From contig RBNJ01000051.1 of the NCBI GenBank assembly GCA_003990765.1, positions 1 to 46,862 of the forward strand: a stretch of DNA of 46,862 bases. Direction: 5' to 3'. The position numbers and the translations under genes were made by a program. Shown one piece after another: positions 5,491-44,272 of the stretch. How positions within the stretch are numbered: position 1 is the stretch's first letter; the number at the start of each line of letters is the position of its first letter. The stretch is from Jimgerdemannia flammicorona (taxonomy: Eukaryota). The notes under the pieces are model-generated. The model was given only the letters and a program-made list of their open reading frames with translations, was not told the DNA's origin and made no database searches.

Positions 5491-5499
5491 ACAAAGAAC

Positions 5500-10564: not shown

Positions 10565-10680
10565 ACTTCACTGATACAGGACCAGTAGTCATTCAGGTGT
10601 TCAGAGTAGTACATTCTAGTACCATGGGGACATCTTCCTTGAGGGGCATAGCCATCAATGATCTTGTTGTACCACTGCTT
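10565..10680 (-). other. C-x-H-x12-C-x2-C putative zinc-binding module, copy A
   Basis: Consensus of A/B/C: EQWYNKIIDGYAPQGRCPHGTRMYCSEHLNDCWSCISEV. Confidence 0.7.
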
Positions 10681-10789
10681 CTGTGAGCTTGGGTGTCTTG
10701 TTCTTGTTCTTGTTCACTGAGTGCATGAAGACCTCTATGTCTTCTTCATTTCCTTCCTCCATATCTGGTAGGACTCCTTTGTGGACTTT

Positions 10790-11150
10790 GATAGAGACTT
10801 GTACCTTTCTTCCTCTATAGTTGATCTGTATCTTCTGGGCATTGAGGTAAATGATGGCCTTGGCCTTATGAAGCCATTGGTTGCCAATGAGGATGTCATA
10901 GTTGGTGGCGCTTGTAACAATCATGTCTACTAGAATGGTAGCTCCTCCTATCTTGATGGGGACTTCTCAGATTTTGCCAAGGGGGGTAGCTTGTGTACTG
11001 TCTGCTGTGACATAGACTATCTTGGTGGACTCATCAATATCCCAACCTAGGTGGTCAATTGCCTTCTTGCTCATGAGGCATCCTCCAGCACCAGTATCAA
11101 TGATGGCATCAAAGATACAGTCTTTGATCTGGTAGGGGGTATAGGCTGAT
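10790..11150 (-). pseudogene. Aspartic protease, copy A
   Basis: DAIIDTGAGGCLMS and YDILIGNQWL motifs. Confidence 0.9.
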
Positions 11151-11295
11151 GTCTTATGCTGGTCTTCAGATTCTTTACCTGAGTTCTCGGGTTCTTCCTG
11201 TACATTGTGAGCTTCTACAATTTATACTCTTGATTCTTGGCAGTAGTTGCAAGTCCTACTCTCAACTGCAGACTGAAGGGAGGGACTTCAGCTAG

Positions 11296-12525
11296 CTATC
11301 TAAAAGTGGCATTGACCTTCTGTTCCTTGAGGTCCTTGTAGATGTCATACTGGTGGATCTTGGTCTTGCGCAGCTTCTGTTCTTTCTTGCTTTCACTTTC
11401 TTCTGAGACTGGAGTAGTGCCTTCAATAATTTGGCAGACAGCTTCATCTAACTCCATGTCTTGATCAATCTCCTTGGGTTGGGTCTTGCTTTGAATAGTG
11501 ACAGCTGGGGTCTTCTTTGGTCTTCCAACCAGCTTGCTGTTGCTCTTCTTATCATAGGGCTTGGACCAGGTTCTGGTACCTTCAGTAGCAGGGTAGAATT
11601 TGAGTTCCTCATAGTATTCTTCATCATCAGTATCACCAATCTCCTCAATGACTACTGCATTGGTTTGTTCTCTAGTTCTGCTAGCATTGCTTGATTGGGC
11701 TTTGCATCTTGTTTTGGTCATACAACTCTTTGCATAGTGGCCTTCTTCTTCACATCTGAAGTATGTAATATTGCATTCTTCTGTAGTAGCTGCAAATCTC
11801 TGCACTGGTCTCCTGTTGGCACTTTGGACTTCTCTAACAACATCACCAAGATGTGCAGTCATCTTAGCAAACTGCTTGGCAAGTTCTTCCACTGGGTCAG
11901 CTTTGGCTGTCTTGGGGGTAGGTGGGATTGGTTGTCTGTTTACAACTGTGACAGGTAAGATACTAGTTGGCTTTGATGGCTCCATCTTGATGCCAGTTAT
12001 TTTCTCCATTGAGTGTTTGGCAGGGTGTCTGGCTGTCCAATATCTCTGTGCAAAGACCACTTTCTGATCAAGGGTCAGTGCAGCTGGGGTAGACTGGATT
12101 GCTAGAGCAATTTCAGGGTGAACTCCTTTGAGGAAGGTTGAATCCACTATTTGTTCCTTGAGGCAGTCATCATAGCCAGCCAAGACAATCTGGTGGCAAA
12201 TTCAGATATAGAATGAGTTGGGATCTTTACTAAGTCTCTGGCAGATAGTTTTGAGTTGATCCTTGAGAGCTTGCTTGATCTCTTTGGTATAATATGTTGT
12301 TCTGAGGAAGATCTTCATGTTGGTAAGTTTGGCTGCACCAGCATCAGCAATGGTGGCTGTATTGAACTTGTCTCTGGCAGATCCTCTAAGGCTGACTGGT
12401 AGAAGGGCCAATTGAGCATCTACACCAAGGGCTTGTATGACAGCAAATTGTTCAAAGTCTTCAATGAAGGTCAGGATTGACTCTTCAGTAGTATATTTAT
12501 AGAATGTGGGGGGACACATTTCCAT
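11296..12525 (-). pseudogene. Gag with decayed CCHC knuckle, copy A
   Basis: PPTF...FIEDFE...SLRGSARDKF capsid-like region; ITYFRCEEEGHYAKSC. Confidence 0.85.
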
Positions 12526-12624
12526 CTTGTCTTGAATTCTTGCAGGGGTGACTCTTGTAGTCAGAGTAGTTGTTGTGGGGGTTGTTCGTTTTTCAGCTTA
12601 AAAGTGAGGGATTCATCTTGAATC

Positions 12625-12642
12625 ACCAGCCAATGGGCACCA
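12625..12642 (-). promoter_or_regulatory. Primer-binding site of copy A
   Basis: TGGTGCCCATTGGCTGGT, 3 nt after the 5' LTR; conserved in B (22247-22264) and decayed in C (33815-33832). Confidence 0.85.
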
Positions 12643-12645
12643 AGT

Positions 12646-14183
12646 TGTCATGTAGTGGTCGCTGAGTCCTTCAAATATGCCAGATTCTCTTCAAGGTATA
12701 TCTCTTAGACTAACTCAAGTTTGTTATAAGCAAGTTCTTATTGGAGTGCCTTCCCAAGATCTTATAGTCCTCAAACTTCTTATCTTTAACTATCTTGTTA
12801 TCTCTTAGATTGCTTGCAAGGAAGTGTGTGTAAGTGAAACTGGAACTGACTTTATTTCAGAGGAAATAAGAGGGGTATTTATACAAAATATAATTCAATG
12901 GTTGCTAAGATATAAAGCTAAATATAAATTCCATTAACTAAAACTACTAAGTTCCAGGGCTGGCTTTGATAGTTGTACAGGTTCAGGATGCTGACATTAT
13001 TTAGTATCACATCAAAATGCCGGTGCTGGAACAATTTTGCATCACCTCAGAATACCAGTGCTGGCATTATCCAGTGTTATATGAGAATACCGGTGCTGGC
13101 ATTATCCAGTATAACAAAGAACTTAGAGCAGAAAGTTCAAGATCATGGGGGCTTCATTATCATCATCACTGAAGGAGATGAGATCTATGAATTCATCATG
13201 TAGGTCACATGTTTTGTATACTTCAGGTATGTTGTGCGGGATGACATCATCAATGATGTTATCACATTCGGCTGTGGTGGGGAAATCAGAGACAAGGTCT
13301 GGAGCTCTCTAGTCTATGAGGTTCTCTTCTACAAAATAAGGAACAAATGTGGGGTCTTGGGGAGATCTAACCCAGATACTTGGGCCTTGGAATACTGAGA
13401 TCAATTCTTGCAGAAATTAATCTGGGTTGTCCTGAAGGATAGGATGCCAGAAGTCTTCTACTTCTTCACTGTTGAGGGTGATAGTGAACTGGGCTTCTGT
13501 AGCCACCCTGGCTTCTAGCGCATTGATTTGGCAAGATGACAGGTCTCTGAAGTCCAAGACTCTAACATACTCCAAGTTGGGGATCAACTATAGTGTATGC
13601 CTGAAGATCTGATGGATCTTCTTAGCTATCCTCATTTCGCATATATCCATAGGAGTGGCATCTTATAGCTCTTGGGTGCTGGCCTCTGGGAACTCCTGGC
13701 AGAGGAGGTTTCCTATTTCATACTCCTGCTACATTTGGAGGCATTCGGTAGCAATGGTGATCCTTGTTTTCATTTTGTGGCAGTAGAGAATAAAGTGATA
13801 AGGGTCTGCAGTACCCAGGTTGACACTAGGAGTCCTTCTTGAGCGGGTCCCCATGGCTCTTCTGATGTCTTGGAACATCCTTTCCTCAACTGAGATACCT
13901 TGGTGATTCCTTGACCTTGAGGTTTGGTGGATAGCAGGCATTTCATTTATGATAAGTCTTTGAGCTATTTAGGGATTAGTGGTTCTTATTAGTTGCTGCT
14001 ACTGTGGTTCCTTGATCCTTCTTTTATATTCTTCAGGATGTTTGTGCTGTGGTCACAATGACTCACAGTTGGTCATCATTACTCATCTTGTATACTGTAT
14101 GATCTTCTTGTACTTCGATTTGGTGACTTGCAAGAAAAGGCTGTCTCCTGTGCTGATATCATCATTCTGGGATCACTATTACA
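12646..14183 (-). repeat. 5' LTR of copy A (1538 bp), with U3 ORF remnant
   Basis: Plus strand tgtca...ttaca; adjacent to the PBS; TATAAA at ~12877-12882 (minus). Confidence 0.95.
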
Positions 14184-14357
14184 ATATATATCAGAGAAAT
14201 ATAAAAGATAACAATACTTACATATTGGTAGATAACAATTTCTCTATTTTTCTATTAATAATAATATAAATATTTTATATGTATCTTCTCACTTCAAAAT
14301 ATGTACAGACTTTATAGCTTCTCTATTTTGAGTTTTTCTTTTTCAAAGACTTTATAT

Positions 14358-14977
14358 ATATTTACTAACTTTATAAGATAAATATGAATTTCTATTCTAT
14401 TTATCTTGTTAAAGTGAAATCTTTAATCAGAATATTGTATAATTCTACTATAATGTCAATTAACAGCTGAGCAAATTATCATTATAGTTAAATACTATAA
14501 TTTTAAATAAATAATATAATAATTTAATTAATAAAATATTAAATAAACAAATCATACTTACTATTCTATCTTAGTAGTCTAATATATTATCTTATTTATC
14601 TATCTTGTCTAAAAAATGATATTATTGAAATATATATATAAAAATATCTAAAAGTGTTCTTGTTGTTATAATATTATAATTGAATATCTAATCAAAGAGC
14701 TTGTTATATCTTTTTGCTTAAAATTCTTTATATATTCTAAATTCTAAATATATTTAAAAAAAAAAAATTTATAAATATAAATCTCTTTATAATTATTTAG
14801 TTTAATTATTATTTATATTTAATATTTAACTTATATATTGAGTAAGAATATGTGAAGCAATATTATGAATCTATTCTCATACTATATAGTAAGCATAGTT
14901 AAATCTAATAGCTTTTCTAGAATTCTCAAAAATAGCTTCTGTAAGAATTGCATCAGAATATAGAGTATTTTGTCTAT
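14358..14977. repeat. AT-rich duplicated sequence, copy 1 (continues at 23775-24053 after element B)
   Basis: Inverted match to 31327-32231. Confidence 0.85.
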
Positions 14978-16569
14978 TGTTATATAGTGGTCGCTGAGTC
15001 CTTCAAATATACCAGATTCTCTTCAAGGTATATCTCTTAGACTAACTCAAGTTTGTTATAAGTAAGTTCTTATTGAAGTACCTTTCCAAGGTCTTATAGT
15101 TCTCAAACTTCTTATCTTTAAACTGTCTTGTTATCTCTTAGATTGCTTGCAAGGAAGTATATATATTGTACTGAGAGAGACTGACTTTATTTCAAAGAAA
15201 ATAAGAAGGGTATTTATATAAAATATATATAATTCGATGGTTGCTAAGATATAAAGCTAAATATAAATTCCAATAACTAAAATAAAATGCCAGAACAGGA
15301 AAAACTGCTAAGTTCCAGAGTCAGCACTAATGGTTGTATAGGTTCAGGATGCTGGTATAATTTTGGTAGTACAGAAAAATGGTGCTGGAATAATTCAGTA
15401 TTACATCAGAATACTAGTGCTGGCATAATTTAATATTATATCAGAATGCCAGTGCTGGTATAATTCAGTGTAACCAAAGGACTTTTAGAGTAGAATGTTC
15501 AAGACCATAGGGGCTTCATCCTCATCAGAGGTCAGGATATCTTCAAAGGAGATGAGGTCCACAAATTCATCATTATTACATAGGTTATATATTTTATATA
15601 TATCATACATCTCATGTATGTCACATGTGATGATGTTATCGCCAATGATGTCATCATGTTTAGCAGCAGCAGGAACAAGGAGGTCTGAGGCTCTTCAGTC
15701 TATGAGATTTTCTTCTACAAAATAGGAGACAAATGTGGGATCTTGGAGAGATCTGATCTGGATACTTGAGTCTTGGAATACTGAGATCAATCCTTGCAGG
15801 AATTGGTCTGGGTTGTCCTGGAGGATGGAATGCCAGAAGTCTTCTACTTCATCACTATTGAGGATGATAGTAGACTGGGCTTCTGTAGTCACCCTGGCTT
15901 CTAGTGTATTGATATAGTGGGCTGACAGGTCTCTGAAGTCTGAGACTTTAATATACTCCAAGTTGAGGATTGAGCATAGTGTATGCCTGAAGATCTGATA
16001 GATCTTCTTAGCTGTCTTTGTTTTATATATATCTATAAGAGTGGCATCTTGTAGCTCTTGAGTGCTGGCCTGTAGAAACTCCCAGCAGAGGAGGTTTCCT
16101 ATTTCATACTCCTGCCACATTTGGAGGTATTCAGTAGCAATGGTGATCCTTGTTTCCATTTCATAGCAGTAGAGAATGTAATGATAAGGGTCACCAGTAC
16201 TCAGGTTGACACTAGGAGTCCTTCTTGAGTGGGTCCTCATGGCTCTTCTGATGTCTTGGAACATCCTTTCTTTGACTGAGATACCTTGGTAATTCTTTGA
16301 CCTTGAGGTTTGGTAAGTAGCAGGCATTTTGTTTATAGTAAGTCTTTGAGCTATTTTGGGATTGGTGGATCTTATTGGTTGCTGCTACTGTGGTTTCTTG
16401 ATCCTTCTTTTATATTTCTCAAGATACCCATACTGTGGTCACAATGACTCACAGTTGGTCATCATTGCTCATCTTGTATACCATATAATCTTCTTGTACT
16501 CTGATCTGGTGGCTTACAAGAAAAGGCTGTCTCTTGTACTGATGTCATCATTCTGGGGTCACTATTACA
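14978..16569 (-). repeat. 3' LTR of copy B
   Basis: tgtta...ttaca, adjacent to the PPT; contains the 210-aa open stretch 15695-16327. Confidence 0.95.
15485..16327 (-). pseudogene. U3 ORF in copy B
   Basis: 210 aa uninterrupted, reading through the stop seen in A; continues into the acidic tail. Confidence 0.8.
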
Positions 16570-16882
16570 TCTTTCTCCTAAATAAGGATCTTCTTGAATG
16601 TCCTTGTTCATTGGTCTAGTCCTGAAAAATTTGCTGATCCCATAACCTCTGACAAGGGGTCAAAAAGTGGTATTTATGAGCTGGCATCTTCTCTTTGTAT
16701 TTTGGTGTAATGGTGAAGAGTCACTCTCTTCATATAGAACAAGAGCTTGATTCTGATCTTGACCAATCAGTTGATGGTTCAAACTCCTCTGGCTTCAAAA
16801 GTCTCATGGATGAGTAGTTGCTGGTGCTATATCTCTTAGAGAATGGTCCAAACAGATAGCCTACTAGTCATGAAATATACTG

Positions 16883-19800
16883 TTATAATTCACAGACTAG
16901 AACCTCATGAGTGGTCATCATATTTTGCTTCTCTTATATAGGTTCATGGTACTTCTTGAGTCTGTTCCTATATACTATAGTAGGCAGTATAGTCTCTAAG
17001 ATTTTTCTAAGCCAGCAGGTAGTTCTCTTAATATCTTGCATATAGAAGAGTCCTTTCTATTTAGGCTCTAGTTTTTGTAACTATAAGACTTCTACCATAT
17101 TTCAATACAGTAGGACCTTTTCTTCAATTTGGATGGGTTCTAGGATCTTGTGATTCTTTTCTGCATTCTTCTTTGTCAGTACTTGTAACTTGATGATATA
17201 ATCATCAGCCTTCTCTCTGATTTGGTGTAGTCTCCAGATTTCTGCATCTACTTATCTCCAAGTTAGGTCTAGATTTGTAGCTGAGACTCCATCAGAATCT
17301 TCTTCTCTGAAGAGCAGTTCTCTTGGGGTAAAGTGTGTGCTCTGTGACTGTATGTCTTGTAGGATAGAGGGGATAGTTGAGAGGTAGTTATCTCAAATTC
17401 TTGTATTTGTCTAAGATCTTCACCAGGATGTTCTTGAGGGTCTTATTGGTTCTCTCTATCTGTCTGTTTCCTTGAGGGTGGTACATGGTAGTCTTGATGT
17501 ACTGAATCCTATATTTCTGATATATTATCTCATAGAATCCATTGACAAATTCTGTGCCACAGTCTGTTGTAATTTGCTTCAGTATCTTGTAGCAGCAGAT
17601 GATTTCTCAGTGCAGGAAGTCAGCTATAGAGAGGGCATTGGCTTCTTGTAATACTCTTGCTTCTATCTATTTAGTAAAGAGGTCTATAATATGTAACTAT
17701 AATATAGCAGTTTCCTGATAGTGTTACTAGTAGTAGTCCAATGATATCCATTGCAATGTGGTAGAAGGGGATAGGCTCAATTCTTGATAACCCAGATATC
17801 TAGTCTTACTGATCTTGTTTCTGTTTTAGGCACTTATTACACCCTTTGACAAATTGGCATAGGTCTTCTTCTATTTTGGGCCACTACATGGTTCTTATTA
17901 CTTTATTATATATATGTATTGGTTCCTCCTAAGTATCCTTATTCATATACTTTCTTCATTACTTGATACTTCTTATGTTTGGGTATTACTAGCTTTTCTT
18001 CTTTTCTGAGTATAGTATTGTCTAGTTCAAACTGTTTCCAAGTCCAGTTGATGATAGTGATTATCCAGAGTTTGAGGTGGTTGAGCATCTTCCACTGCCT
18101 AAGATAGCTAATTAATCCATAGTATAACTTCTTATTTATGTTGAATAGTCTTGATGGGGGTGTTTTGGGGTATCCTTGAGAGTGCATCAGCATTGGTATT
18201 GGTTCTTTCTGAGTGGTGCTTGACAGTACAGTCATACTATTGCAGTCTGTAGATCCATCTGGCATATATTCCTTTGGGGTTCAAAGTGTGGAATAGCCAG
18301 ACAAGAGCGGAATGGTCTGTTTGAACAGTGAAGTGTTTCCCAGCTAGGTAGTAGTGGAAATTGTCTACTGCCCAAACTACTGCTATGTATTTGAGCTTGC
18401 ATGACTTATAGTTCTGTTCTGCTCTATGGGTACCTTGGCTTGCATAGGAGATGACATATTTATTTCCATCTTTCTTCTGAGCTAGGACTGCTCCAAGTCC
18501 TATAGCACTTACATCTGTCTGCAGGATAAATTCTAGGTTCCAATCTGATCTTCTGAGGATAGGTGCTTGGGTCAATCTGGTCTTGAGTTCATTGAAGATT
18601 TCTTGGCATTTCTTGGTCTATTTGAATTTGGTTTCCTTCTTCAGTAGCTCATAGATAGGTGCTGAAATGTTAGAGTATCCTTTGATGAATCTTCTATAAT
18701 AGCTGGCCAGTTCAAGGAAGACATGGACTTCTGTAGTTGTTCTGGGTCTCAGATAGGCTGCAATAGTCTCAATCTTTATAGAGTCTATATGGGTTTCGGT
18801 CTGGTTGATAAGGTGTCCTAGGTAGGTAATTTTCTGAGCTACAAACTTACATTTCTTTGGCTTGATATAGAGGCCATGCTCCTTGAGCTTCTTGTAAGCT
18901 AGCTGTATGTGATTGACATGTTCCCATGCAGTATTGCTGAAGATGATCACATCATCAATATGGATAAAGAGCTATTTTCCAATCTCATTGCTGAAGACTC
19001 TGTTCATCATTCACTAGAAACTTGCTGGGGCATTGTACATTCCAAATGGCATTTGCAAGTAGATATAGATGGCATCAGGTATGATGAAGGCTGATTTCTC
19101 ACTGGTATCTTGAGTGAGACCAATCTGATGGAAGTCTGAGAACAGATCTAAGGTAGTATAGTATTTGGCTTTGCTTCCAAAGGTAGTAAGGATTTCTTGA
19201 ATATTTGGCAAGGGCTGTCTATCCTTCTTGGTGATTACATTGAGCTTTCTGTAGTCAATGCAGAGTCTTAGTGCAAATTCTCCAGACTTGCTTTCTTTCT
19301 TTAGGGCAAGGACAATGGGTAAAGCCCAGGGACTGATAGCTTGCTTGATGATTCTGGCTTCTTCCATTTCCTTGAGTTCTGCTCACAGCCATTCTCTGTA
19401 GGCAAGTGGTATAGGTCTGACTTTCTGGTAGATGGGCTTGGTATCACCAGTGTCAACTTCATAGTAGTACTTGGGTTCTTGATTGTGGATATCCCTGAAG
19501 TCTGTAGCAAGTACTCCTTCATTCTGATACAGGACCTTGAGAAATTGTTCTTCTAGAGGAAGGTTTTCTCCAATAGTATATGTGTACTTATTCTTGTCTC
19601 TGTTTTTCTTATACTTAAGTTCGGTAATCTTGGTGATGGTATAGACTCCTCTTCCAGTAAATCCAAAGCCTTGTTATTCTCTCTTAGTCTTGATGAGTTC
19701 AATGGCTTCAGTTATCTTGGGCTTCTTGATTTCATGGATCAGCATCTGGTCAATCCTATCATGCTTCTTGACTTCAAATGGGGTGGTGGGGTTGTGATTC

Positions 19801-22152
19801 CTGACTATGAGGAAGATCTTGCTATGTAATCAGGGTCAATTACTCCTCCTTCAACTGAGATTTCACTTTTGGTCAGACTGCTCCTGGTCTTAATAATTCT
19901 GGTATAGTTCTCTGGCAACTTGACTCTAATTCCAGTACCAAGTAGGATTGTGGTCTGTGGTTTGAGGGTAGCATCTTGAATGTTGGCAAGGTCTATTCCT
20001 ATGGCTCCTTCAGTCTTGTATTCTGAGATCTTGGCTTCAGAGTGAAACTTCTTGACCTTGAGAGTGATATCTGATTCTTGTTCCTCCTCATCATTACTGT
20101 CAGCTTGAAGCTTGGGGGGACTTGTCATCTACTTTAGCTTTTCTTTTTGCTTCAGTGGCTTCTTGCTCATATTTCTGTTGACAGATTTTCCTGACTTTAC
20201 TGGTACAGGACCAGCAGTCATTCAGGTGTACCATGGGGGCATCTTCCTTAAGGGGTATAGTCATTGATGATCTTGTTGTACCACTGCTCATCTGTGAGCT
20301 TGGGTATCTTATTCTTGTTCTTGTTCACCAAGTACATGAAGACTTCTGTGTCCTCTTCATCTCCTTTCTTCATATCTTGTAGAACTCCTTTGTGGATATT
20401 GATAGAGACTCATACCTTTCTTCCTCTATAGTTGATCTGCATCTTCTGGGCATTGAGGTCAATGATGGCCTTGGCCTTGTGAAGCCATTGGTTGCCAATG
20501 AGGATATGTATCATAGTTGGTGGTGCTTATAACAATCACATCTACTGAGATGGTAGCTCCTCCTACCTTGATGGAGACTTCTCAGATTTTGCCAAAGAGG
20601 GTAGCTCATATACCATCTGCTGTAACATAGACCATCTTGATGGACTCTTCAATGTCTCAGCCCAGGCAGTCAATTGTCTTCTTGCTTATAAGATATCCTC
20701 CAGCACTAGTATCAATGATGGCATCCAAGATACAATCTTTGATCTGATATGGGGTATAGGCTGATATCTTATGCTGGTCTTTGGATTCTTTACCTGAGTC
20801 TTCTGATTCTTTCTGTACATTGTGAGCTTCTATAATCTTATACTCTTGATTCTTGGCAGTAGTTGCAAGTCCTACTCTCAACTGCTATCTGAAGGCAGGG
20901 ACTTCAGCTAACTGTCCAAAAGTAGTATTGATCTTCTGTTCCTTGAGGTCCTTGTAGATATTATACTGGTGGATCTTGGTCTTGCACAGCTTCTATTTCT
21001 TCTTACTTTTGCTTTCTCCTGAAACTGGAATAGTGCCTTTAATGATTTGGTGGACAGCTTCATCTAACTCCATATCTTGAATAATCTTCTCTGGTTGAGT
21101 CTTACTTTGGATAGTAATAGCTGGGGTCTTCTTTAGTCTTCCAACTAGTTTACTATTGCTCTTCTCAATATAGGGCTTTGACCAGGTTCTGGTACCTTCA
21201 GGAGCAGGATAGAATTTGAGCTCCTCATAGTATTCTTCATCATCAGTATCACTAATCTCCTCAATGACTACTGTATTGGTATGTTCTCTGGTTCTGCTAG
21301 AATTGCTTGGTTGGGCTTTGTGTCATGTTTCGGTCATACAATTCTTTGCATAGTGGCCTTCTTCTCTACATCTAAAGCATATGATATTGCATTCTTCTGT
21401 AGTAGCTGCAAATCTCTGCACAGATCTCCTGTTGGTACTTCAGACTTCTCTAACAATATTACCAAGGTGTCTAGTCATCTTAGTGAACTACTTGGCAAGT
21501 TCCTCCACTGGGTCGGCTTTGGTTATCTTGGGGGTAGGTGGGGAAGGTTGTCTGTTTACAACTGTGGCAGATATGATACTAGTTGGCTATGATAGCTCTA
21601 TCTTAATACCAGTTATTTTCTCCATTGAGTGTTCAGCAGGATGTCTGGCAGTCTAATATCTCTGTGCAAAGACTACTTTCTGATCAAGGGTCAGTGTAGC
21701 TGGGGTAGACTGGATTGTTAGGGCAAATTCAGAGTGAACTCCTTTGAGGAAGGTTGAATCTGCTATTTGTTCCTTGAGGGCATCATCATAGCTAGCCAAG
21801 ACAATCTGGGGGCAGATTCAGGTATAGAATGAGTTGGGATCTTCACTAAGTCTCTAGCAGATATGTAGTATTGAGTTGATCCTTAAGAGCTTGCTTGATC
21901 TCTTTAGTATAGTATATTGTTCTGAGAAAGGCCTTCATATTGGAAAGTTTGGTGCACTATTAACAGCAATAGTGACTGTATTGAACTTGTCTCTGGCAGA
22001 TCCTCTGAGGCTGATGGGTAGAAGGGCCAATTGTGCATCCACACCAAGGGCATGTATAGTAGTGAATTGTTCAAAGTCTTCAATAAAGATCAGGATTGAC
22101 TCTTTAGTAGTATATATATCTATAGAATGTGGGGGGGTATATTTCTATCTTG
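16883..22152 (-). pseudogene. gag-PR-Zn module-dUTPase-RT-RH-IN of copy B
   Basis: Fragments 20657-20881 (PR, IIDTSAGG), 19805-20128 (dUTPase), 19014-19367 and 18618-18950 (RT), 18237-18575 (RNase H). Confidence 0.93.
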
Positions 22153-22267
22153 TCTTGAATTCTTGCAGGGATGACTCTTGTAGTCAGGGTAATTGTTGTG
22201 GGGTTTTTCATTTTTCAGCTTGAAAGTGAGGGATTCATCTTGAATCACCAGCCAATGGGCACCAAGT

Positions 22268-23774
22268 TATCATGTAGTGGTCACTGAGTTCTTCAAATAT
22301 ACTAGATTCTCTTCAAGGTATATCTTTTAGACTAACTCAAGTTTGTTATAAGCAAGTTCTTATTAGAGTACCTTTCCAAGGTCTTATAGACCTCAAACGT
22401 CTTATCTTTAAACTATCTTATTATCTCTTAGATTGCTTGCAAGGAAGTGTGTATATTGCACTGAGAGGAACTGACTTTATTTTAGAGGAAATAAAAGGGG
22501 TATATATACAAAATATAATTCAATTGTTGCTAAGATATAAAGCTAAATATAAATTCTAATAACTAAAATAAAATGCCAGAACAGGAAAAACTGCTAAGTT
22601 CCAGGATCAGTACTAATGGTTGTACAGGTTCAGGATACTGGTATAATTTCAATAGTATAGAAAAATGATGCTAAAATAATTCAGTGTTACATCAGAATAC
22701 CAGTACTGGTATAATTCAGTATAACCAAAGAACTTTTAGAGTAGAATGTTCAAGACCATAGAGACTTCATCCTCATCAGAGATCAGGATGTCTTCGAAGG
22801 AGATGAGGTCTATAAATTCATCATCATCATATAGGTCATGTGTTTCATATATATCACATGTCTCATGTATGTCACATATGATGATGTCATTGGTAATGAC
22901 ATCATCACATTTGGTGGCAGTGGGAACAAGGAGGTCTGGGGCTCTCCAGTCTATGAGGTTCTCTTTTACAAAATAGGGGACAAATGTGGGGTCTTAGAGA
23001 GGTCTGACCTGGATGCTTGGATCTTGGAATACTGAGATCAATCCTTGCAGGAATTGGTCTGAGTTGTCCTGGAGAATGGGATGCCAGAAGTCTTCTACTT
23101 CATCACTATTGAGGGTTATAGTAGACTGACAGGTCTCTGAAGTCTGAGACTCTAACATACTCCAAGTTGGGAATTAATCATAGTACATGCCTGAAGATCT
23201 GATAGATCTTCTTAGCTGTCCTTATTTCACATATATCTATGGGAGTGGTATCTTGTAGCTCTTGAGTGCTGGCCTGTGGGAACTTTCAGCAGAGGAGGTT
23301 TCCTATTTCATACTCCTGCCATATTTGGAGGCATTTGGTAGCAATAGTGATCCTTGTTTCCATTTCACAATAGTAGAGGATATAATAATAAGAGTCACTA
23401 GTATCTAGGTTGACACTAGGAGTTCTTTTTGAGTGGGTCCTCATGGCTCTTCTGATGTCTTAGAACATTCTTTCTTTGACTGAGGTGTCTTGGTAGTTCT
23501 TTGACCTTGAGGTTTGGTGAGCAGCAGGCATTTCATTTGTAGTAAGTCTTTGAGCTCTTTTTGGGATTGGTGGGTCTTGTTGGTTGCTACTACTGTGGTT
23601 CCTTGATCCTTCTTTTAAATTTCTCAAGATACCCATACTGTGGTCACAATAACTCACAGTTGGTCATCATTACTCATCTTGTATACTGTATGATCTTTTT
23701 GTGCTCTGATCTGGTAGCTTGTAAGAAAAAGCTGTCTCCTGTGCTAATGTCATCATTCTGGGATCACTATTACA
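22268..23774 (-). repeat. 5' LTR of copy B
   Basis: tatca (decayed tgtca)...ttaca; lacks one tandem unit and has an internal deletion near 23127. Confidence 0.93.
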
Positions 23775-29876: not shown

Positions 29877-29904
29877 AATTATATTTGATAGATTAGTAAT
29901 AAAT

Positions 29905-30660: not shown

Positions 30661-31326
30661 ATACAGGAGAAAGGTAGTGATGGCCACCTGCTTAGTAATA
30701 AGCCCTAGCATCATTTTCACTATTACTGCTAGACCCTGGAAGTACAGCATAACTACAAATACCAAGATCAACTTTTTGAGTAATGGGGCTACCATCAGGC
30801 CCATCACACTATCTGCCAAATTCCCCTACCTTTCAAGCCCCAACTGCTCAGCCTTGCCATCAGCAGTTACATCTGGATTTTTTTCTAGATTGGCAGTCCT
30901 GTCACCATCAGCTATCACATTCACCCCAGCTACTACACCCCCAGCTCTACTGCTCCCACCACCAAGGGCTACTCCTCTATGTACTGCCACCTTCTCCATA
31001 TTCTTGCCTTTTCTCAGCCACCCCTCCAGTCCAGACACCTGCTGTCTCTCTTTCACTATCTCTGTAAAGCTCACTCTTCCCAACCCCTGTCCTCTACCAC
31101 TGCTTTCTTCCCTTCTGTATCCTCCTGCCAGCAGCTCCCTCATATTTCCCCCCAGGTCAGGGCCTCTCTCCACATGCTGCCAGTTGAATGTACTTGAGTC
31201 ACTCTGCTCAATATGTACCTCAGATTGCCTATCAGTCATTATGTTGCTAGTCTCTTTTCTCCAAGAACAATATTGTAAGTACTTTCCAAAGATTATGTAA
31301 CCTAAATGATACTAGAGAAAGATGTG
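30661..31326 (-). mobile_element. 5' end/ORF1 of putative LINE, subfamily a
   Basis: Same start (catctttctct...) and homology as 37143-38172. Confidence 0.65.
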
Positions 31327-33811: not shown

Positions 33812-36800
33812 ACTTTGTGCTCATTGACTAGTGATTTAAGACAAATCCCTCACTTTCAAGCTGAAAAATGAACCACTACCACAATAACTACTCTGACTAC
33901 AAGAGTCACCCCTGCAAGAATTCAAGATAAGATAAAAATGCATCCCTACACATTCTATGGATATACTACTGAAGAGTCAATCCTGACCTTTATTGAAGAC
34001 TTAGAATAATTTGCTGTCATATGAGCTCTTGTCATGGATGTACAATTGGTCCTTCTACCTGTCAGCCTCAGAGGACATGCCAGAGATAAGTTTAATGCAA
34101 TCACAATTGCTAATACTGATGAAGCCAAACTTGTCAACATAAAGACCTTCTACAGAACTACATACTATATTAAAGAGATCAAGCAAGCTCTCAAGATCAA
34201 CTCAATACTATCTGTCAGAGACTTAGTAAAGACTTCAACTTATTCTACATCCAAATCTGCCACTAAATTGTCTTGGCTGACTATGATGATGCCCTTAAGG
34301 AACAAATAGCTAATTCAACCTTTGTTAAAGGAGTTTACTCTGAAATTGTCCTAGCAATTCAGTTTACGAGATATTGAACTGCCAGACACCCTGCTAAATA
34401 CTCAATGGAGAACATAACTGGCATTAAGATAGAGCCATCAAAGCCAACCAGTATCATACCCACCATAGTCATAAACAGACAACCCTCCCCACCTACTCCT
34501 AAGATAGTGAAAGCAGATCCAGTGGAGGAACTCACCAAGCAGTTTGCCAAGATGACTGCATATCTTGGTGATATTATTAGAGAAGTCTGAAGCACCAACA
34601 GGAGACCAGTATAGAGATTTGCAGTTGCTATAGAAGAATACAATATCACATACTTCAGATGTAGAGAAGAAGGCCACTATATAAAGAGTTGCATAATCAA
34701 AACAAGATGCAAAGCCCAACTAAGCAATACTACTAGAACCAGAGAATAAACCAATATAGTAGTCATCAAGGAGATTGGTAATACTGATGATGAAGAATAT
34801 TATAAAGAGTTCGAATTCTACTCTATTACTGAAGGTACCAGAACCTGGTCCAAGCCCTATGACAAGAAGAGCAACATCAAGCCAGTTGGAAGACTAAAGA
34901 AGACTCCAGTTGTCACTATTCAAAGCAAAACCCAACCTGAGGAGATTGATCAAGACATGAAGTTAGATGAAGCTGCCTACTAAATTATTAAAGGCACTAC
35001 TCCAGTCTCAGGAGAAAGTGAAAGTAAGAAAGAACAGAAGCTGCATAAGACCAAGATCCACCAGTATGATATCTACAAGGATCTCAAGGAACAGAAGGTC
35101 AATACTACTTTTGAACAACTAGCTGAAGTCTCCACCTTCAGACAGCAGTTGAGAGTAGGACTTGTAACCACTGTCAAGAACCAAGAGTACAGGATTGTAG
35201 AAGCTCACAAGGCACAAGAAGAATCTGAAGACTCAGGTAAAGAATCTGAAGATAAGTACAAGATATCAGCCTATACTCCATGTCAGATTGAAGATTGTAT
35301 CTTTGATGCCATCATTGATACCAGTGTTGGAGGATACCTCATGAGCAAGAAGACAATTGACTGCCTAGACTGGGATATTGAAGAGTCTACCAAAATGGTC
35401 TATGTTATAGTAGATGATATATGAGCTACTCTCTAGGTAAGATCCAAGAAGTTCCCATCAAGATAGAAGGAGCTACCATTCCAGTAGATATAATTGTTAT
35501 AAGTATCAGCAACTATAACATCCTTATTGGCAACTAATGGCTTCACAAGGCCAAGGCTGTCATTGATCTCAATGTCCAAAAGATGCAGATCAACTATAGA
35601 GGAAGAAAGATACAAGTCTCCATCAATGTCCACAAAGGAGTACTACTAGATATAGAGGAAGGAGATGAAGAGGACACAGAAGTCTTCATATACTTAGTGT
35701 ACAAGAACAAGAGCAAGACACCCAAGCTTATAGATGAGCAGTGGTACAACAAGATCATTGATGGCTATGCCCCTCAAGAAAGATACCTCCATGGTACTAG
35801 GATGTACTGCTCCAAATATCTGAATGACTGCTGGTCATATATCTGTAAAGTCAGGAAAATTCATTAATAAAAGTATGAGAAAGAAGCTGCTGAAGCAAAA
35901 AGGAAAGCTGAAGAAGATGACCAGCCCCCAGAGCTTCAAGCTGATAGTGAGATAATGAGGAGGAATAAGAACCAGACATCACTCTCAAGGTCAAGAAGTT
36001 TTACCCCAAAGCCAAGATTCCAGAATATAGACTGAAGGAGTCATAGGAATGGACCTTGCCAGTATTCAAGATACTATCCTTGAACAACAGACCACTACTC
36101 TACTTAGCACTGGAATTGGAGTCAAGTTGCTAGAGAACCATACTGGAATTATCAAGACCAGGAGCAGTCTGGCCAAAAGTAAAATCTCAGCTGAATGAGG
36201 AGTAATTGACTCTAATTATACTGGCAAGATCTTCCTCATAGTCAGGAATCACAACCTCACCACCCTATTTGAAGTTAAGAAGTATGATAGAATTGGCCAG
36301 ATGCTGATCCATGAAGTCCAGAAGCCTAAGATTACTGAAGTCATCAAACTCATCAAGACTAAGAGAGAACAAGGCTTTGGATCTACTGGAAGAGGAGTCT
36401 ATACTGCCACCAAGATTACCAAACTTGAGCAAAAGAAAGATAAAGACCAAAACAAGTACATATATACCATTAGAGAAAACCTTTCCCAAGAAGGACAACT
36501 TCTCAAGATTCTATACCAGAATGAAGGAGTACTTACTACAGACTTCAGGGACATCTACAATCAAGAACCCAAGTACTACTATGAGGTTGATACTAATGAT
36601 ACCAAGCCTATCTACCAGAAAGCCAGGTCTATACCACCTGCCAACAGAGAATAGCTATAAGCAGAACTCAAGAAAATGGAAGAAGCTGAAATCATCAAGC
36701 AAGCTATCAGTTCCTGGGCTTCATACATTGTCCTCACCCCAAAGAAAGAAAGTAAGTCTGGAGATTTTGCACCATGACTCTGCATCAATTACAGGAAGCT

Positions 36801-37142
36801 CAATATAATCACCAAAAAGGATAAACAGCCCTTGCCAAATATTTAAGAAATTCTTACTACTCTTGAAAGCAAAGTCAAATACTATACTATCTTAGATCTG
36901 TTCTCAGGCTTTCATCAGATTGGTCTCACTTAAAATATCAGTGGAAATCAGCCTTCATTATACCTGACATCACATATGTCTATCTGCAAATACCATTTGG
37001 AATGTGTAATACCTCTGTAAGTTTTTAGTAAATAATAAACAGAGTCTTTAGCAATGAGATTGGAAAATAGCTCTTTGTCTATGTTGATGATGTAATCATC
37101 TTCAGCAATACTATATGGGAATATATCAATTACATACAGCTA
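32232..37142 (+). mobile_element. Ty3/Gypsy family 1, copy C (5' LTR to mid-RT, interrupted)
   Basis: LTR 32232-33811 (tgtaa...tgaca), PBS, gag, PR (IIDTSVGG), Zn module ~35735-35855, dUTPase ~35985-36392, RT with YVDD at 37080-37091. Confidence 0.95.
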
Positions 37143-38172
37143 CATCTTTCTCTGGTAATATTCAGGTTATACAACCTTTTGGCAGTACTTTCAACACAGT
37201 TTCTGGAGAAACGCTACTAGTATCATAGCAACTGATAAGCATTCTGAGGTGCATACTGGACAGGGTGGCCTGGGTACATTTGACTGACAGTATGTGAGGA
37301 GGGGCTCTGGCTTGGGGGGAAGTATGAGGGGCCTGCTAGCAGGTGGACATAGTAGGGGAGAGGGCAGTACTGGAGGTCAGAGAACAGAGAGGGTGAGCTT
37401 TATAGACAAGGTGAGGTCAGCAGAGAGCTGGGCTGGAGGGCTGGCTTAGAAGGTGCAAGGAGATAGTGAAAACTGCAGGGCAGTAGCCTCAAGAGGGAGT
37501 CTTTCTGGGGGGCCAGAGTAGTGGGGCTGGTAGTGTAGAGGCTGAGGGGGTAACTACTGATGGGAGCATGATAGGTAATCAGGAAAAAAATCTAGATAGA
37601 ACTGCTGATGGTGGACCAAGAAGTGGGAGAGGTATGAGGTCTAGTAATCTGGCTAATAGTGTAATAGGACTAGCAGTGGCACCATTACTCAAGAAGTTGA
37701 TCTTGGAGTTCACAGTTGCCTTATACTTCCAGGGCTTAGTAGTGATAGTAAAAATTGTCCTGGGGCTGATTGCTAAGCAGGTGACTGGAGCAGTATCTGT
37801 GAAGTTTCTGAAGGGACTAGAAGGAGTGAAGGTTGGCTTTGAGGAGGCTGGAACATTAGAGGAGGCTCTGAAGGCAGGGTTGACAGTTGGAGAGGTAAGT
37901 GTTCTGATAGCACATTGCTTGAGGTGGGACTCCAGGGTGGTGCAGTTATTGGTAAATGGGGTGCCCATAGTGACCACTGAGAAGATAAGGAGGAGAGTTG
38001 TGGAAGTCATGACTGAGTATAGTGAGGTAGTAAATGTTGGATTCTAGGTCTGAGAGGGGACCTCTTTCAGTACTGGGGATGTTGATGTTCAAATTCAGTT
38101 GGCAGGGAAGAAAGCTACTAGAAAGGCTAGGAACTGGCCTTCAGTAATGGTCTGGGGGGCTTTCTTGTATAA
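37143..38172 (+). mobile_element. 5' end/ORF1 of putative LINE, subfamily a, inserted in copy C
   Basis: Homology with 30661-31326; ORF 37568-38047; interrupted by the LTR of D. Confidence 0.65.
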
Positions 38173-40221
38173 TGTAAGAGAGTTACTTGTTATTGTAACT
38201 ATTATGTAGTTCTCTGGAAGTTCTGGATGTTCTGGAAGACCGTTTTCTCAAGGTCAAGATCAATTTCATATGGAGTATGTCCTCTATACTTATTGATTTC
38301 AAGATCGGGTTGATGTCTTAACCAAAGTCCTTTTTTTGAACTAGTTCTGAATATTTAGGAGTTTCCATATTTCAGGAAGTTCAAGAAACTAAGACAAGCT
38401 TAGTTGAATTGGTATATTGCTACAGACAATATCCAATTAGGAAATTTTGTAATGGGGTTAGAAGTGGGACCTAATGGGGAGCAGATTTACTTAAGAGTAG
38501 TTTGTAAGTTATTAAATAGATTTATTTGCTATTCATGATATTACTATACTAGAAGTAGTTGTGTGAAGGAGTATTGTGAGAAAGTGCTCAGGAATGTTCT
38601 TATATATTTGAGTCTGAGATTCTGAGGTCTGGGGGAGGGAGTATTTATACCAGTGAGGGGCTATCTGGGCTATGCTGAATATAGATGTAGCACTTAGTGC
38701 CTTGCTGAGTCAGAATGCAGTCATGCAGTATAAGTGTGATCTGATATGTCAAGAGATTGTCTGACTGCTGAGTCAGTTCACAGTTATATCATACAAGGCT
38801 AATCTAACTATACTATGACTGCTAAGCTATTTATAGCTTTAGACACTGTCTGGATAGTTTTTGATGACATCACTATCAATAACATTATCTCTGATGAAGT
38901 AGTCATTTAGAAAGAGTTGTTCACAGATTAATTCTCTCTGTTTGCTGAGGTAATAATATATTGAGACTTCATCACCATCTGACAGGATAGCATCATCTGT
39001 CTTATATGCTAAGTATGGAGTTGGTAGGCAAAGGAGGGGTGCATCATCTTTGCTTTCCTCGGATTTGCTGTCTGCATATCTTTTATAAGTTATGGCACTA
39101 TGAGTTGCTGGATTGTAGTAAGCTAGTGGCTGTAGTTCATGTTGCTTGTACTCAGATGGCAGAGTTGTTGGTTCAATCTCAAGAGTTGTCTGAAGGTACA
39201 GGTTGTGTTCTCCAGTCTCTTCATTATAGTTAAAGTAATCAGGGGTGAATGTGGACTAGTACTCATGCCAGTGGTCATTGTTCCAATAAGTTTCATAAGT
39301 GGTTATGAACTGTTGTAAGTTCATCAGCAGGATTGGTAGAGTGATCAGGGTTGACAGGGATCCTTAGCTTGAGGTCATATTGGTGTCAGAGAGATCATTG
39401 TCTTCTGCTTCATCTTCATCAAATCAGATTATATCATAGATATCCTTCATAGTGTATCTGACTTGAGGCATTTGCAAGATATAATCATTGGGGTGTAGGA
39501 AGGTTCTGTCTGTGGTCTGAACATATTTGAGGTACTTTTTGTATTATATCATTGATTTGGCCATAGAACAGAGTAGCAACCATTTTAGTAGTAATAACTC
39601 AGAGGTGGGGGATAATAGTACTATACTCATAGAAGAGTTCTTGATGTTTCCAGGCAATGAGTTTCTGGTGTTGAGACATCTGGGTAATATCTATATCATG
39701 ATGGTGTTTGACTATGTCTTTCTGGAGGCAGCTAATCTGGTAGTAGCTTGAGATTTATCCAATTTGGTGAACTTTGCTAAGTAAGTTCAGGGCATTCTAT
39801 CAGGCTTTCACAAAGTAGAGAGGTGCTAAGCTATGGATATTCATAAGGGACAGAGGGGGTGTGGCTCAGTTGATAATAGCATTCCAAATGTCAGCATAGA
39901 TGTGGTTGTAGATCTTAGTGGTCATATTTATATATGTTCAGAAGTTATAGTTATTTGTTTGGTTTGTTTTAGTTCTCTGTTTCAATGCATCTTAGTACTC
40001 AGTATATATACATTTGGTCCTGATTGGTAAGATTCTGTTTGTGTAAATCTTGTATTCTGTGACTTCATATTGACTCAGCTTTGTGTGCTGTGACTTTGGT
40101 TTGACTCAGCTTCGTGATCTTGCAGATGATTTCCAGATTTGTTCAGAGGTCACATGTGATTTCAGTGGCTTGTTCTGAAGGTGACATATGATTTCAGTAA
40201 CTTGAAGGTTGTGGGCTTACA
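38173..40221 (-). repeat. 3' LTR of D (2049 bp)
   Basis: Terminal inverted repeats tgtaag...cttaca; adjacent PPT; TATAAA at ~38643-38648 (minus); homologue at 25539-26760. Confidence 0.88.
38839..39925 (-). pseudogene. LTR(U3)-encoded ORF of family 2, ~360 codons
   Basis: MTTKIYNHIYADIWNAII...ISSYYQI(G)CL...LIA(R)KHQELFYEYSTIIPHL...DNVIDSDVIKNYPDSV*; transition-type stops and one frameshifting deletion near 39540. Confidence 0.72.
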
Positions 40222-41960: not shown

Positions 41961-42179
41961 TTATTTGGAACATACAATCTGTCCTTGTAGTAGATAGCAT
42001 TATCCTTCAGTTGGTATTGGTTGTATCAGATATACTTGTCAGTATCATCACTGTACAGAATTTCTCTGAGTACTTGAGCTTTCTTATCATTGGCACATGC
42101 TGCAATAATTTGTTCCATGATAGTGTTGGTAACTAAGGTGAGAGTTTGGATAACTCTTCAATTGGTAGTCTGGAGATTA

Positions 42180-43430
42180 CATCAGCAACAATATTTTCCT
42201 TGCCAGGCCAATACTGGATTTTATAGTCAAAGTTGGTGAGGACTTTCATCTATCTGGCTTGCTTTCGGAAAAGGGTAGCCTGGGTCTTGATGTTGACTAA
42301 TGACTTGTGGTCAGTCAATATGGTGAAGTGTACTCCTTCTAGGTATGGTTGCCATTTGATCAGAGTGTCTATGATGGCTAACATTTTTTTTTCATAAGTT
42401 GTGTAGTTGATTTCAGCATCATTGAACTTGTGAGAGTGGTAGGCCACAGGGTGTCCTTCTTGCATCCAAGGGCTAGGTCAGAGGCATCAGTAGTAACTTC
42501 ATATAGTAATCCAGAGTTTGCTGCTTGAAGTACTGGAGTAGTTATCAAGGTATCCTTCAGTACTTGAAAGGTGGTATCTTGCTCAGGTCACCAATTTATA
42601 AGATTGTTGAAGTCTTTTTCTTATTTCAGGATTCAGGGCTGTTCTTCTTTCTTATTGTGCTTGGTCATTTGGATGAGGGCAGTAGTGATTTTGGCAAAGT
42701 TGGCAACAAATCATCTGTAATAGTTTGCTAATCCCAGAAATGACTGGAGGTCTTTCAGCTTCTTGGGTCTGGGCCAATCCTTGATTACAGAGATTTTACT
42801 GTGGTCTACTTTGATTCCATTTGGTATGACAATGTGTCTAAGGAATTAAATTTCTTTTAGAAGAAATTTACATTTGCTAAGTTTTGTAAAGAGTCAGTTC
42901 TCTTGGAGTTTCAGTAGTACTAGTTCAAGGTGTTGAAGATGTTCCTCCAGGGTTTTGCTAAAGACTAGGATGTTGTCAATATAAACAACAACAAATTTGT
43001 CTAGATATGAGTACAGGACAGTATTCATCAGTATCCAAAAGGTTATAGGAGCATTAGTTAAGCCAAAAGGTATAACCAGAAACTTGAAGTATCTATAGCA
43101 AGTTCAAAATACTGTCTTGTAGATGTCTTCTTCTTTTATGGCAATTTGCCAATAGCCATTTCACAGATCAAAAGAGCTCATGAATTGTGGGTTGGTAAGC
43201 CTATCGAATATTTCATCAGTTCTGAGCAGTGGGTAACAGTTCTTGATAGTCTGTTTATTGAGATTACAGTAATCAATGCATATTCATAAATCTTCTCCTT
43301 TCTTGACAACAGAGAGGACTGATGCACTATAGGGTGATACACTGGGTCTGATGAATCCTTGTTCTAGGAGTTCATCGATTTCTTTCTTGAGTACATCAAT
43401 TTCTCTTAGAGATACATATGTGGTAGATTG
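42180..43430 (-). pseudogene. RT and RNase H, D
   Basis: GFIRPSVSPYSASVL, CIDY, IPFGLTNAP, VVVYIDNILVF, TTDAS, HPVAYHSHKF, TDHKSL. Confidence 0.93.
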
Positions 43431-43759
43431 ACTTGAAGGCTGGCTTAGCATCTGGAATGGTCTTGATTGCATAGTCAACTGCTCATTTAGGTGGTAGGCC
43501 TTTCAGAAGTTTCTTTGAAAATATGTCTCAGAATTTCTAGAGTAGTGGTCTGACATGGCTGTCAACTTTGGAAAAATTTTCTTCAGAGTTCTCAGGTTCT
43601 TCTTTGGAAGAGCAGACAGAGATGGCAAAGAGAGGATATTTCTTGGCCAATTTCTTGAGCTATAGCTTATTGATGTAAGTGATCTTTGGTCCAGGGTCAC
43701 TGGAGCTGAGTGGGTCCTTTTCGCCTTATAGTTTGAAGTTGTGGTATTCTTTCTTGATG

Positions 43760-44070
43760 GTCAGAGAATGGTTTACCCAATCGATTATAGGGTTCTCTTG
43801 TTTTAACCATAGAGTCCCAAGGACGATTTTATTGTCAGAGAGTAGTATAATCTGTAGAGTAACATGTACTTGGTAGTCACCAATTCAGAAGAGCAGATTG
43901 CAGACTTCCTTACTAATGACATGGGAGGTTCCATCAGCTGTGACAACTGCTTGAGTTTGTTGTACCGGAGAGGTGAAAACCTTGAGTCTGTTGGCTGTTT
44001 CTTCATTGATGAAGTTGCCTGAGGCACTACTGTCTATCATAATCTTGACAGGTGCTCAGTTGATAAAAGC
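43760..44070 (-). pseudogene. Aspartic protease, D
   Basis: IMIDS(G)ASGNFI and IVLGTLWL motifs. Confidence 0.85.
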
Positions 44071-44154
44071 TTGAAGTGTAAGTAGTTTATCTGATCCAAT
44101 GGTAGTGATTTCAGTTGTAGGAGCTTTCCTTCTATTGGCTCTTCTTTGAGCCAG

Positions 44155-44272
44155 TTCATTGACACAAGAGAAGCAATCATCTATTATTTGAGAAGAGTAC
44201 ATTCTAATACCATGGAGGCATTGGCCACTTGGTATATATCCATCTTTGATTTTCTTATAGAATTGTTCTTCT
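44155..44272 (-). other. C-x-H-x12-C-x2-C module, D
   Basis: EQFYKKIKDGYIPSGQCLHGIRMYSSQIIDDCFSCVNEL (ORF 44056-44280). Confidence 0.75.

Follow-up and report, generated by a model that had tools for sequence, protein, structure and literature searches.

Retroviruses and retrotransposons have acquired dUTPases on many occasions, and to our knowledge the delivery of the enzyme to the site of reverse transcription is understood only for betaretroviruses. In Mason-Pfizer monkey virus, a fusion of nucleocapsid and dUTPase (NC-dUTPase) has been argued to position the enzyme at the polynucleotide while reverse transcription is under way (PMC1802613). Fungal Ty3/gypsy elements with a dUTPase in pol include PosPlaTy3-3, -4, and -5 of Postia placenta, elements of Phanerochaete chrysosporium, and Tmt1 of Tuber; in these elements the enzyme can lie at the N terminus of Pol, between protease (PR) and reverse transcriptase (RT), or at the C terminus, and independent acquisition has been suggested for fungal Gypsy elements (PMC2864245). 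In an entomophthoralean fungus, dUTPase is reported to be enriched together with retroviral protease domains (bioRxiv 10.1101/2023.09.13.557621), and in the bdelloid rotifer Adineta vaga, the Juno long terminal repeat (LTR) retrotransposons carry, between PR and RT, a dUTPase with "an extra Zn knuckle" after it (PMC5408684). Here we describe a small Cys/His domain, referred to below as the module, that lies between protease and dUTPase in two families of Ty3/gypsy LTR retrotransposons found in a 46,862-nt stretch of Jimgerdemannia flammicorona DNA (assembly GCA_003990765.1, contig RBNJ01000051.1, forward strand; "the window").

The window contains four decayed elements, of which copies A, B, and C belong to family 1 and copy D to family 2, and all of these copies are dead. 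When Pfam was run on the 61 stop-to-stop frames of the window, protease, dUTPase, RT, RNase H, and integrase were recognized on copies A and B, dUTPase on copies C and D, and RNase H on copy D. The dUTPase family (PF00692) was found in all four copies, with E values from 4e-23 to 3e-4, and in intact relatives as well. In copy A, the order of Pfam matches (RVP_2/Asp_protease_2, RVT_1, RT_RNaseH, Integrase_H2C2, rve) places integrase after RT, as in Ty3/gypsy elements (Metaviridae). By three-frame reading, Pfam, and motif mapping, family 1 has the order Gag CCHC knuckle, PR (IIDTGAG), module, acidic linker, dUTPase, RT, RNase H, and integrase, while family 2 has the order Gag CCHC knuckle, dUTPase, module, PR (MIDSSAS, a decayed DSG), RT, and RNase H. 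The three-frame reading and Pfam confirmed both domain orders as given in a first-pass annotation of this DNA. Pfam also matches a protease at the corresponding place in P0001, an intact family 2 relative. The best PDB matches of the element dUTPases are cellular and viral dUTPases, and in alignment the dUTPase motifs appear intact in undecayed relatives. Compared by published layout only, family 2 corresponds to the N-terminus-of-Pol arrangement and family 1 to the PR-RT arrangement of PosPlaTy3-type elements; the available text of that paper mentions only CCHC and HHCC zinc motifs, does not use the word "zinc," and describes no Cys/His domain beside the dUTPase (PMC2864245).

The module is approximately 47 residues long and has the form E-E/Q-x-W/F-Y ... 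C-P-H-G ... C-x2-C followed by a helix, with a ligand spacing of C-x-H-x12-C-x2-C. When the six-frame translation of the window was searched with a hidden Markov model of the module, the four copies A to D were found and nothing else; the module of copy B had not been listed in the first-pass annotation. The family 2 string reported there is present verbatim at positions 44164-44268 (minus strand), while the family 1 string is a composite that occurs exactly in no copy (copy A differs from it at 3 of 35 positions and copy C at 6 of 35). By eye, this composite differs by one residue from an intact family 1 relative, P0002. The ungapped alignment of the module between the families was reproduced with intact proteins: in a BLASTP comparison of P0001 (family 2) and P0002 (family 1), 22 of 47 residues are identical (E = 7e-14 for the pair), a similarity that, judged on sequence, is far beyond chance. 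Between the same two proteins, the RTs are 38% identical over 144 residues, the dUTPases are 42% identical over 92 residues, and the proteases are barely alignable (E = 0.17).

The proposed ligands C, H, C, and C are retained in 21, 20, 19, and 20 of 22 aligned rows, respectively, and each exception is a change of C to Y, H to Y, or C to G that stems either from a decayed copy or from a database fragment in which other changes of this sort occur. C24 and C42 are present in all of 13 diverged sequences (30 to 58% identity to the first of them), and P20, P25, H26, M30, and C39 are at least 90% conserved. In a comparison of copies A (7599-12943) and B (17218-22568), we counted 539 transitions and 75 transversions; 112 of 238 C/T differences lie before A and 160 of 301 G/A differences lie after T, a CpA-to-TpA pattern like that of repeat-induced point mutation, and this pattern accounts for the replacement of C and H by Y and for the stop codons in the window copies. 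As a side observation, the Gag of family 2 contains a conserved G-x-C-P-H-x2-W-C stretch, seen in P0017 and P0008 and decayed in copy D (at approximately 45070-45111, minus strand), that recalls the C-P-H of the module, yet the module profile does not match it, and no second match beyond the module itself was found in the Gag of P0017.

AlphaFold2 modeled the module from the 13-sequence alignment with a mean predicted local distance difference test (pLDDT) score of 87.2 and a predicted template modeling score of 0.63. The model consists of a helix (residues 7-15), a hairpin of two strands (22-23 and 29-30), a short helix (33-38), and a last helix (40-50), with C24-P-H26-G spanning the hairpin turn and C39 and C42 at the start of the last helix. 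The modeled arrangement is what a zinc knuckle with a helix cap would look like, and its secondary structure fits a treble-clef-like ligand layout, but the fold libraries return no match for it. In a model of a 320-residue relative, P0005, the dUTPase core (residues 60-170) scores mostly 80 to 92, with one ten-residue block at 67, and the module (approximately residues 211-265) scores 84 to 87, while segments 192-209 and 268-282 score below 50. Because the module of P0005 is modeled confidently and both flanking segments score below 50, the model indicates that the module is an autonomous bead on flexible linkers. Taken with the conservation, the models indicate that the module is a real, autonomously folding domain of about 47 residues in the Gag-Pol of a fungus's dUTPase-carrying Ty3/gypsy elements and that it most likely binds one zinc ion through its C, H, C, and C residues. 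A unit that always stands between two oligomeric enzymes, with flexible linkers on either side, could instead be a structured but inactive spacer that keeps the trimeric dUTPase apart from the dimeric protease. We regard this as highly improbable, since Cys/His and aromatic residues that stay invariant at 30 to 58% identity would not be needed in a plain spacer, and the linkers beside the module are themselves unalignable.

The first-pass annotation did not recognize the module as a named domain, and this was upheld by searches of Pfam, PDB sequences, three fold libraries, and the full-text literature, none of which gave a match. With E values up to 10, three module pieces from the window matched only BDHCT in Pfam (E = 0.099), and when 13 relatives were scanned singly, no family appeared in more than two members. 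Like the module, the Gag CCHC knuckle (PF00098; C-x2-C-x4-H-x4-C) and the integrase HHCC domain (PF17921; H-x(3-7)-H-x(23-32)-C-x2-C) are small Cys/His units of the same polyproteins, but their ligand spacings differ from that of the module. We rejected both as its identity: the CCHC knuckle was matched by none of the 3 pieces or 13 relatives at E values up to 10, the HHCC domain gave no Pfam match, and an hhalign comparison of the module alignment with the HHCC region of copy A gave a probability of 0.2% over 7 columns. In searches of PDB sequences, a single piece had one match at an E value of 0.7 and the profile had none. Among structural searches, the best result was an E value of 2.2 with Foldseek against PDB, a Z score of 3.0 with VIA-align against 48,161 chains, an E value of 0.9 against BFVD, and a score of 0.82 to an unnamed cluster in the ESM Atlas. 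In full-text searches of the literature we found no account of the Cys/His domain, although one could still stand in papers beyond those read or in the supplementary tables of PMC2864245. The domain family that the module represents is new and has no name, and the elements that carry it are of a known kind.

Outside the window, a profile search over all 1.84 billion representative proteins (E values up to 0.001) gave 13 matches, 12 of which were taken as true; the other, P0014, in which 13 positions of a repetitive protein are matched, was taken as false. Pfam recognized a dUTPase in 9 of the 12 true matches, and the three without one are short (P0007, 157 amino acids; P0009, 63; P0011, 82). 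A word-index search of 5.8 billion clusters with the 13-sequence profile returned 15 proteins, 14 of them with PF00692. A scan of metagenome contigs yielded two loci (L001 and L002) out of 20 pattern matches, of which L002 is a decayed, family-2-like copy with the order dUTPase-module-PR-RT, whereas viral contigs (1 pattern match) and prokaryote genome contigs (3 pattern matches) contained no relatives. Among sequencing runs, two soil-metagenome DNA runs contained 0.15 and 0.06 of the sampled words, and no RNA run was among the runs listed for these words. The module is rare in the databases searched.

Among the 20 outside sequences in total, 13 have the order dUTPase-module, 3 have the order module-dUTPase (P0002, P0010, and P0013), and 4 have no visible dUTPase, so a dUTPase adjoins the module in 16 of 20, and the association seen in the window recurs in other elements. 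A protease follows the module in P0001, P0005, P0006, P0015, P0017, L002, and copy D and precedes it in P0002, P0013, and copies A to C; among sequences with a visible protease, the module is never on the side of the dUTPase that is far from the protease. The first-pass statement that the module travels with the dUTPase thus holds as a matter of counts (9 of 12 and 14 of 15), but the protease is an equally constant neighbor, and L001 has neither enzyme. Because the module lies between PR and dUTPase wherever a protease is visible, its association with dUTPase is inseparable from its position at the protease border. One further protein, P0008 (485 amino acids), is a Gag-NC-dUTPase-module protein that ends a few residues past the module; in this family, the first reading frame may stop after the module, with the protease in the next frame.

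These neighborhoods would also be expected if the module belonged to the protease, as a zinc-stabilized flank that regulates dimerization or activation or presents cleavage sites, with the dUTPase inserted on its far side in both lineages. The module adjoins the protease in both orders wherever a protease is visible, the mirror-image orders are easily explained if it marks the protease border, and in family 2 it stands where retroviruses carry a transframe region, which precedes PR. We nevertheless consider this explanation unlikely. It would be odd for a fixed protease accessory to follow PR in one order and precede it in the other, as the module does. In our reading of the sequences with the dUTPase-module order, dUTPase motif 5 is approximately 10 to 40 residues from the module, compared to approximately 45 to 85 residues for the catalytic Asp of PR. 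In addition, neither the profile search nor the word-index search found a module beside a protease without a dUTPase.

The same short distance, together with the strong association, fits a module that docks on the dUTPase and modulates, for example, its flexible C-terminal arm or the stability of the trimer, with no binding of nucleic acid: in the dUTPase-module order, the module begins only some 10 to 40 residues past motif 5 of that arm, and in NC-dUTPase the fused domain is reported to alter the conformation of the terminal segments (PMC1802613). In family 1, however, the module lies approximately 45 residues upstream of the dUTPase, across an acidic and probably disordered linker, the gap between module and dUTPase grows to approximately 90 residues in P0013, and the linkers in the P0005 model are of low confidence. 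Given these separations, we find docking quite unlikely as the role of the module.

The metagenomic locus L001 bears on whether the module is tied to either enzyme. In this 1,122-bp contig, the module is part of a long frame that continues for 106 residues on its upstream side and for approximately 240 on its downstream side, and neither a protease nor a dUTPase was found in these flanks. Downstream of the module are W-C-x-C-x-E-C and C-x2-C-x6-C motifs; Pfam (E up to 1) did not find Zn_clus at the latter stretch, and an ESM Atlas search with the L001 frame gave no usable match. An internal repeat flanks the module (residues 43-95 versus 41-97 of the last frame). The similarity of P0007 and P0011 to L001 extends past the module, and in P0013, which has the order PR-module-long linker-dUTPase, the linker shares a short stretch with L001. 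The L001-type context may derive from module-dUTPase elements, or it may be something else.

Contexts of this kind raise the prospect that the module is a separately mobile zinc domain, used for instance in DNA or chromatin targeting and possibly exchanged with host genes, whose adjacency to dUTPase is an accident of insertion where polyproteins tolerate inserts. L001, P0007, and P0011 carry the module with downstream Cys-rich motifs and no dUTPase or protease in view. In yeast Ty3, the J (junction) domain is a small region of unknown function between PR and RT that is not known to carry a Cys/His motif; this junction tolerates extra sequence. The PR-RT junction is also described as tolerating extra domains (PMC2864245, PMC5408684). 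The module tree described below also marginally rejects the monophyly of the module-dUTPase group, which the dUTPase tree keeps. On the other side, only 4 of the 20 outside sequences have no visible dUTPase and 3 of these 4 are short, the module tree is built from 50 columns and has long branches, and 12 true matches among 1.84 billion representatives do not amount to an abundant host family. A freely mobile domain is, in our estimation, very unlikely.

We also asked how the two domain orders could be related. PR-module-dUTPase and dUTPase-module-PR are mirror images and not cyclic permutations, so the transfer of a fixed dUTPase-plus-module block cannot explain both orders. They cannot be interconverted by relocating one unit, or two adjacent units together, in one step, nor by tandem duplication with loss, and at least two events are needed between the two orders. 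In one of the simplest schemes, a two-unit cassette was inserted before PR in one lineage and a permuted form was inserted after PR in the other; in a second scheme of this kind, a dUTPase was captured twice beside a module that was already at the protease border.

Trees were built for the dUTPase and the module from element sequences, RT sequences being limited to two families. In the dUTPase tree (15 rows, 138 columns), one branch separates the two orders, with support of 85/30 and occurrence in 84% of 200 bootstrap trees sampled, so that the split by order is weakly supported by the sequences. The module tree (50 columns) is poorly resolved and has several long branches. In this tree, monophyly of the module-dUTPase group is marginally rejected (approximately unbiased test, p-AU = 0.0375 for 21 rows; leaving out P0009 and the copies of the window reduces the tree to 18 rows and p-AU to 0.0215), while monophyly of the dUTPase-module group is not rejected (p-AU = 0.101). 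With so few columns and several long branches, we did not take these results as settling monophyly in either direction. By bit score, each type of dUTPase is no closer to the other type than to cellular and viral dUTPases in PDB: the dUTPase of P0002 scores 52 to 82 bits against those of the other order and 85.8 bits against the best PDB dUTPase, and that of P0012 scores 79 bits against P0002 and 109 bits against the best PDB dUTPase. We rejected bit scores as a test of one versus two captures, since fast-evolving copies may each stay nearer to slowly evolving cellular enzymes than to one another.

The first-pass annotation had interpreted the module as a small zinc-binding unit that was shuffled between lineages, and it had pointed to the dissimilarity of the two proteases and Gags. 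Gag and PR evolve fast in such elements, so their dissimilarity proves little about exchange. Shuffling did not emerge from our analysis, in which the dUTPase tree is compatible with one old split followed by vertical descent; the feature itself is real and was described accurately, the parts of that interpretation that stood are the unnamed domain and the counts of its association with dUTPase, and zinc binding is plausible. A more specific history, in which the module is a new retroelement-specific zinc-finger family that was joined to dUTPase at least twice, in mirror-image order and always facing the protease, strikes us as doubtful.

Our tentative preference, which we hold at a little below an even chance, is that the module is a zinc knuckle that is left on the dUTPase after processing and tethers the enzyme to the replication complex. 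In this proposal, the module would lie between protease and dUTPase like a bead held by flexible linkers and, once the protease has processed the polyprotein, would stay joined to the dUTPase trimer. From there it would anchor the dUTPase to the nucleic acid or a nucleoprotein inside the virus-like particle, and dUTP would be removed right where reverse transcription takes place. We infer zinc binding, retention of the module by the mature protein, and the tethering role; the last of these is suggested by the association counts, to which L002 and all four window copies add further cases with a dUTPase, by the bead-on-linker architecture, and by two precedents.

In the first precedent, betaretroviral NC-dUTPase resembles the module-bearing elements in combining a zinc-knuckle domain, a flexible linker, and a trimeric retroelement dUTPase, and family 2 shares with betaretroviruses the order NC-dUTPase-...-PR (PMC1802613). 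In contrast, the nucleocapsid itself supplies the betaretroviral knuckles, which are of the CCHC type (PMC1802613), whereas the elements described here carry a separate C-x-H-x12-C-x2-C domain besides the Gag CCHC knuckle; this module is only mildly basic and is C-terminal to the dUTPase in family 2 and N-terminal in family 1. The second precedent is Juno, which as described has, like both families, an extra zinc motif beside a retrotransposon dUTPase; it is an independent case, and its order, PR-dut-knuckle-RT, occurs in neither family of the window (PMC5408684).

Several observations weigh against tethering. A typical nucleocapsid is far more basic than the module, which has a mean net charge of +1.4 (range, -3 to +7; 18 sequences). 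The dUTPase domains are not uniformly basic either, with pI values from 5.7 to 9.4, unlike the betaretroviral case as described (PMC1802613). These charge tests gave no clear signal for tethering. Wherever both enzymes are visible, the protease is as close to the module as the dUTPase is, so the partner of the module is ambiguous, and the outside sequences without a visible dUTPase, including L001 with its long flanks, count against a role that depends on this enzyme. Finally, no known nucleic-acid-binding fold was matched in the Foldseek search of PDB, with VIA-align, or in BFVD.

The positions of the elements and their domains are collected in Table 1. In copy A, a 2-nt deletion just upstream of the module breaks the frame from PR. 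The 3' LTRs of copies A and B contain open frames of 134 to 229 residues (5908-6375, 5503-5904, and 15698-16384, all minus strand), and in copy A a 141-residue open frame separates the integrase from the 3' LTR (6785-7207, minus strand); none of these frames has a Pfam family. A fragment of the latter region recurs inverted at 1419-1818 with 88% identity. The similarity of copy C to copies A and B stops exactly at the edge of an inverted repeat of unknown kind (30685-31325 and 37142-37783, 71% identical), which has long open frames on both strands and matches no Pfam family. A second inverted repeat pair (25556-26760 and 38972-40172) is 75% identical over 1.2 kb.

Table 1. Positions in the window of the four element copies and of their recognized domains
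Feature	Copy (family)	Position	Strand	Remarks
Element	A (1)	5022..14181	-	Window self-comparison
5' LTR	A (1)	12645..14181	-	Self-comparison; LTR pair 91% identical
Gag CCHC knuckle	A (1)	11722..11763	-	First C decayed to Y
Protease	A (1)	10820..11134	-	IIDTGAG 11084-11104, ILIGNQWL 10871-10894; upstream of module
Module	A (1)	10576..10680	-	3 decayed residues, including two C-to-Y
dUTPase	A (1)	10024..10410	-	PF00692, E = 4e-23; downstream of module, past acidic linker
Reverse transcriptase	A (1)	8977..9645	-	PF00078
RNase H and integrase	A (1)	7423..8937	-	RNase H 8671-8937; HHCC 8103-8408; core 7423-8046
3' LTR	A (1)	5022..6558	-	Self-comparison
Element	B (1)	~14977-23778	-	87% identical to copy A over 5.4 kb; LTR pairs also present (self-comparison)
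CCHC knuckle	B (1)	21338-21379	-	Motif mapping
PR motifs	B (1)	20699-20719 and 20482-20505	-	Motif mapping
Module remnant	B (1)	20205..20288	-	20-nt internal deletion and frameshift
dUTPase	B (1)	19823..20038	-	N-terminal part by Pfam
Element	C (1)	From ~32225	+	Similarity to A and B stops at 37142
Knuckle	C (1)	34651-34692	+	Motif mapping
PR motifs	C (1)	35311-35331 and 35520-35543	+	Motif mapping
Module	C (1)	35736..35840	+	6 decayed residues; in frame with C terminus of PR
dUTPase	C (1)	36199..36390	+	C-terminal half by Pfam
Element	D (2)	~42000 to past window end	-	Family differs from that of A to C
Gag CCHC knuckle	D (2)	44791..44832	-	Decayed
dUTPase	D (2)	44305..44655	-	Motif 1 44635-44655, motif 3 44473-44499, motif 5 44305-44319; upstream of module
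Module	D (2)	44164..44268	-	All 4 of the C/H/C/C positions intact
Protease	D (2)	43804..44040	-	MIDSSAS 44020-44040, IVLGTLWL 43804-43827; downstream of module
RT and RNase H	D (2)	42253..43067	-	FGLTNAP 43047-43067, YIDNI 42969-42983; RNase H 42253-42477

The gain from this analysis is incremental, in that the elements, their dUTPase, and its variable position were already known. The module merits a profile of its own for the correct annotation of such elements, and it is a small, tractable experimental target for assays of zinc binding, nucleic-acid binding, and processing. If the module is a new finger that was joined to dUTPase at least twice, this would point to selection for the PR-finger-dUTPase junction and to a functional link, as yet unknown, between processing by the protease and delivery of the dUTPase to the reverse-transcription complex, and it would be a third independent solution beside the betaretroviral NC-dUTPase and the rotifer dut-knuckle. 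If a zinc-type domain does accompany the dUTPase in these elements, they would be a further case of a zinc knuckle combined with a dUTPase, hinting at a recurring functional need and not an accident.

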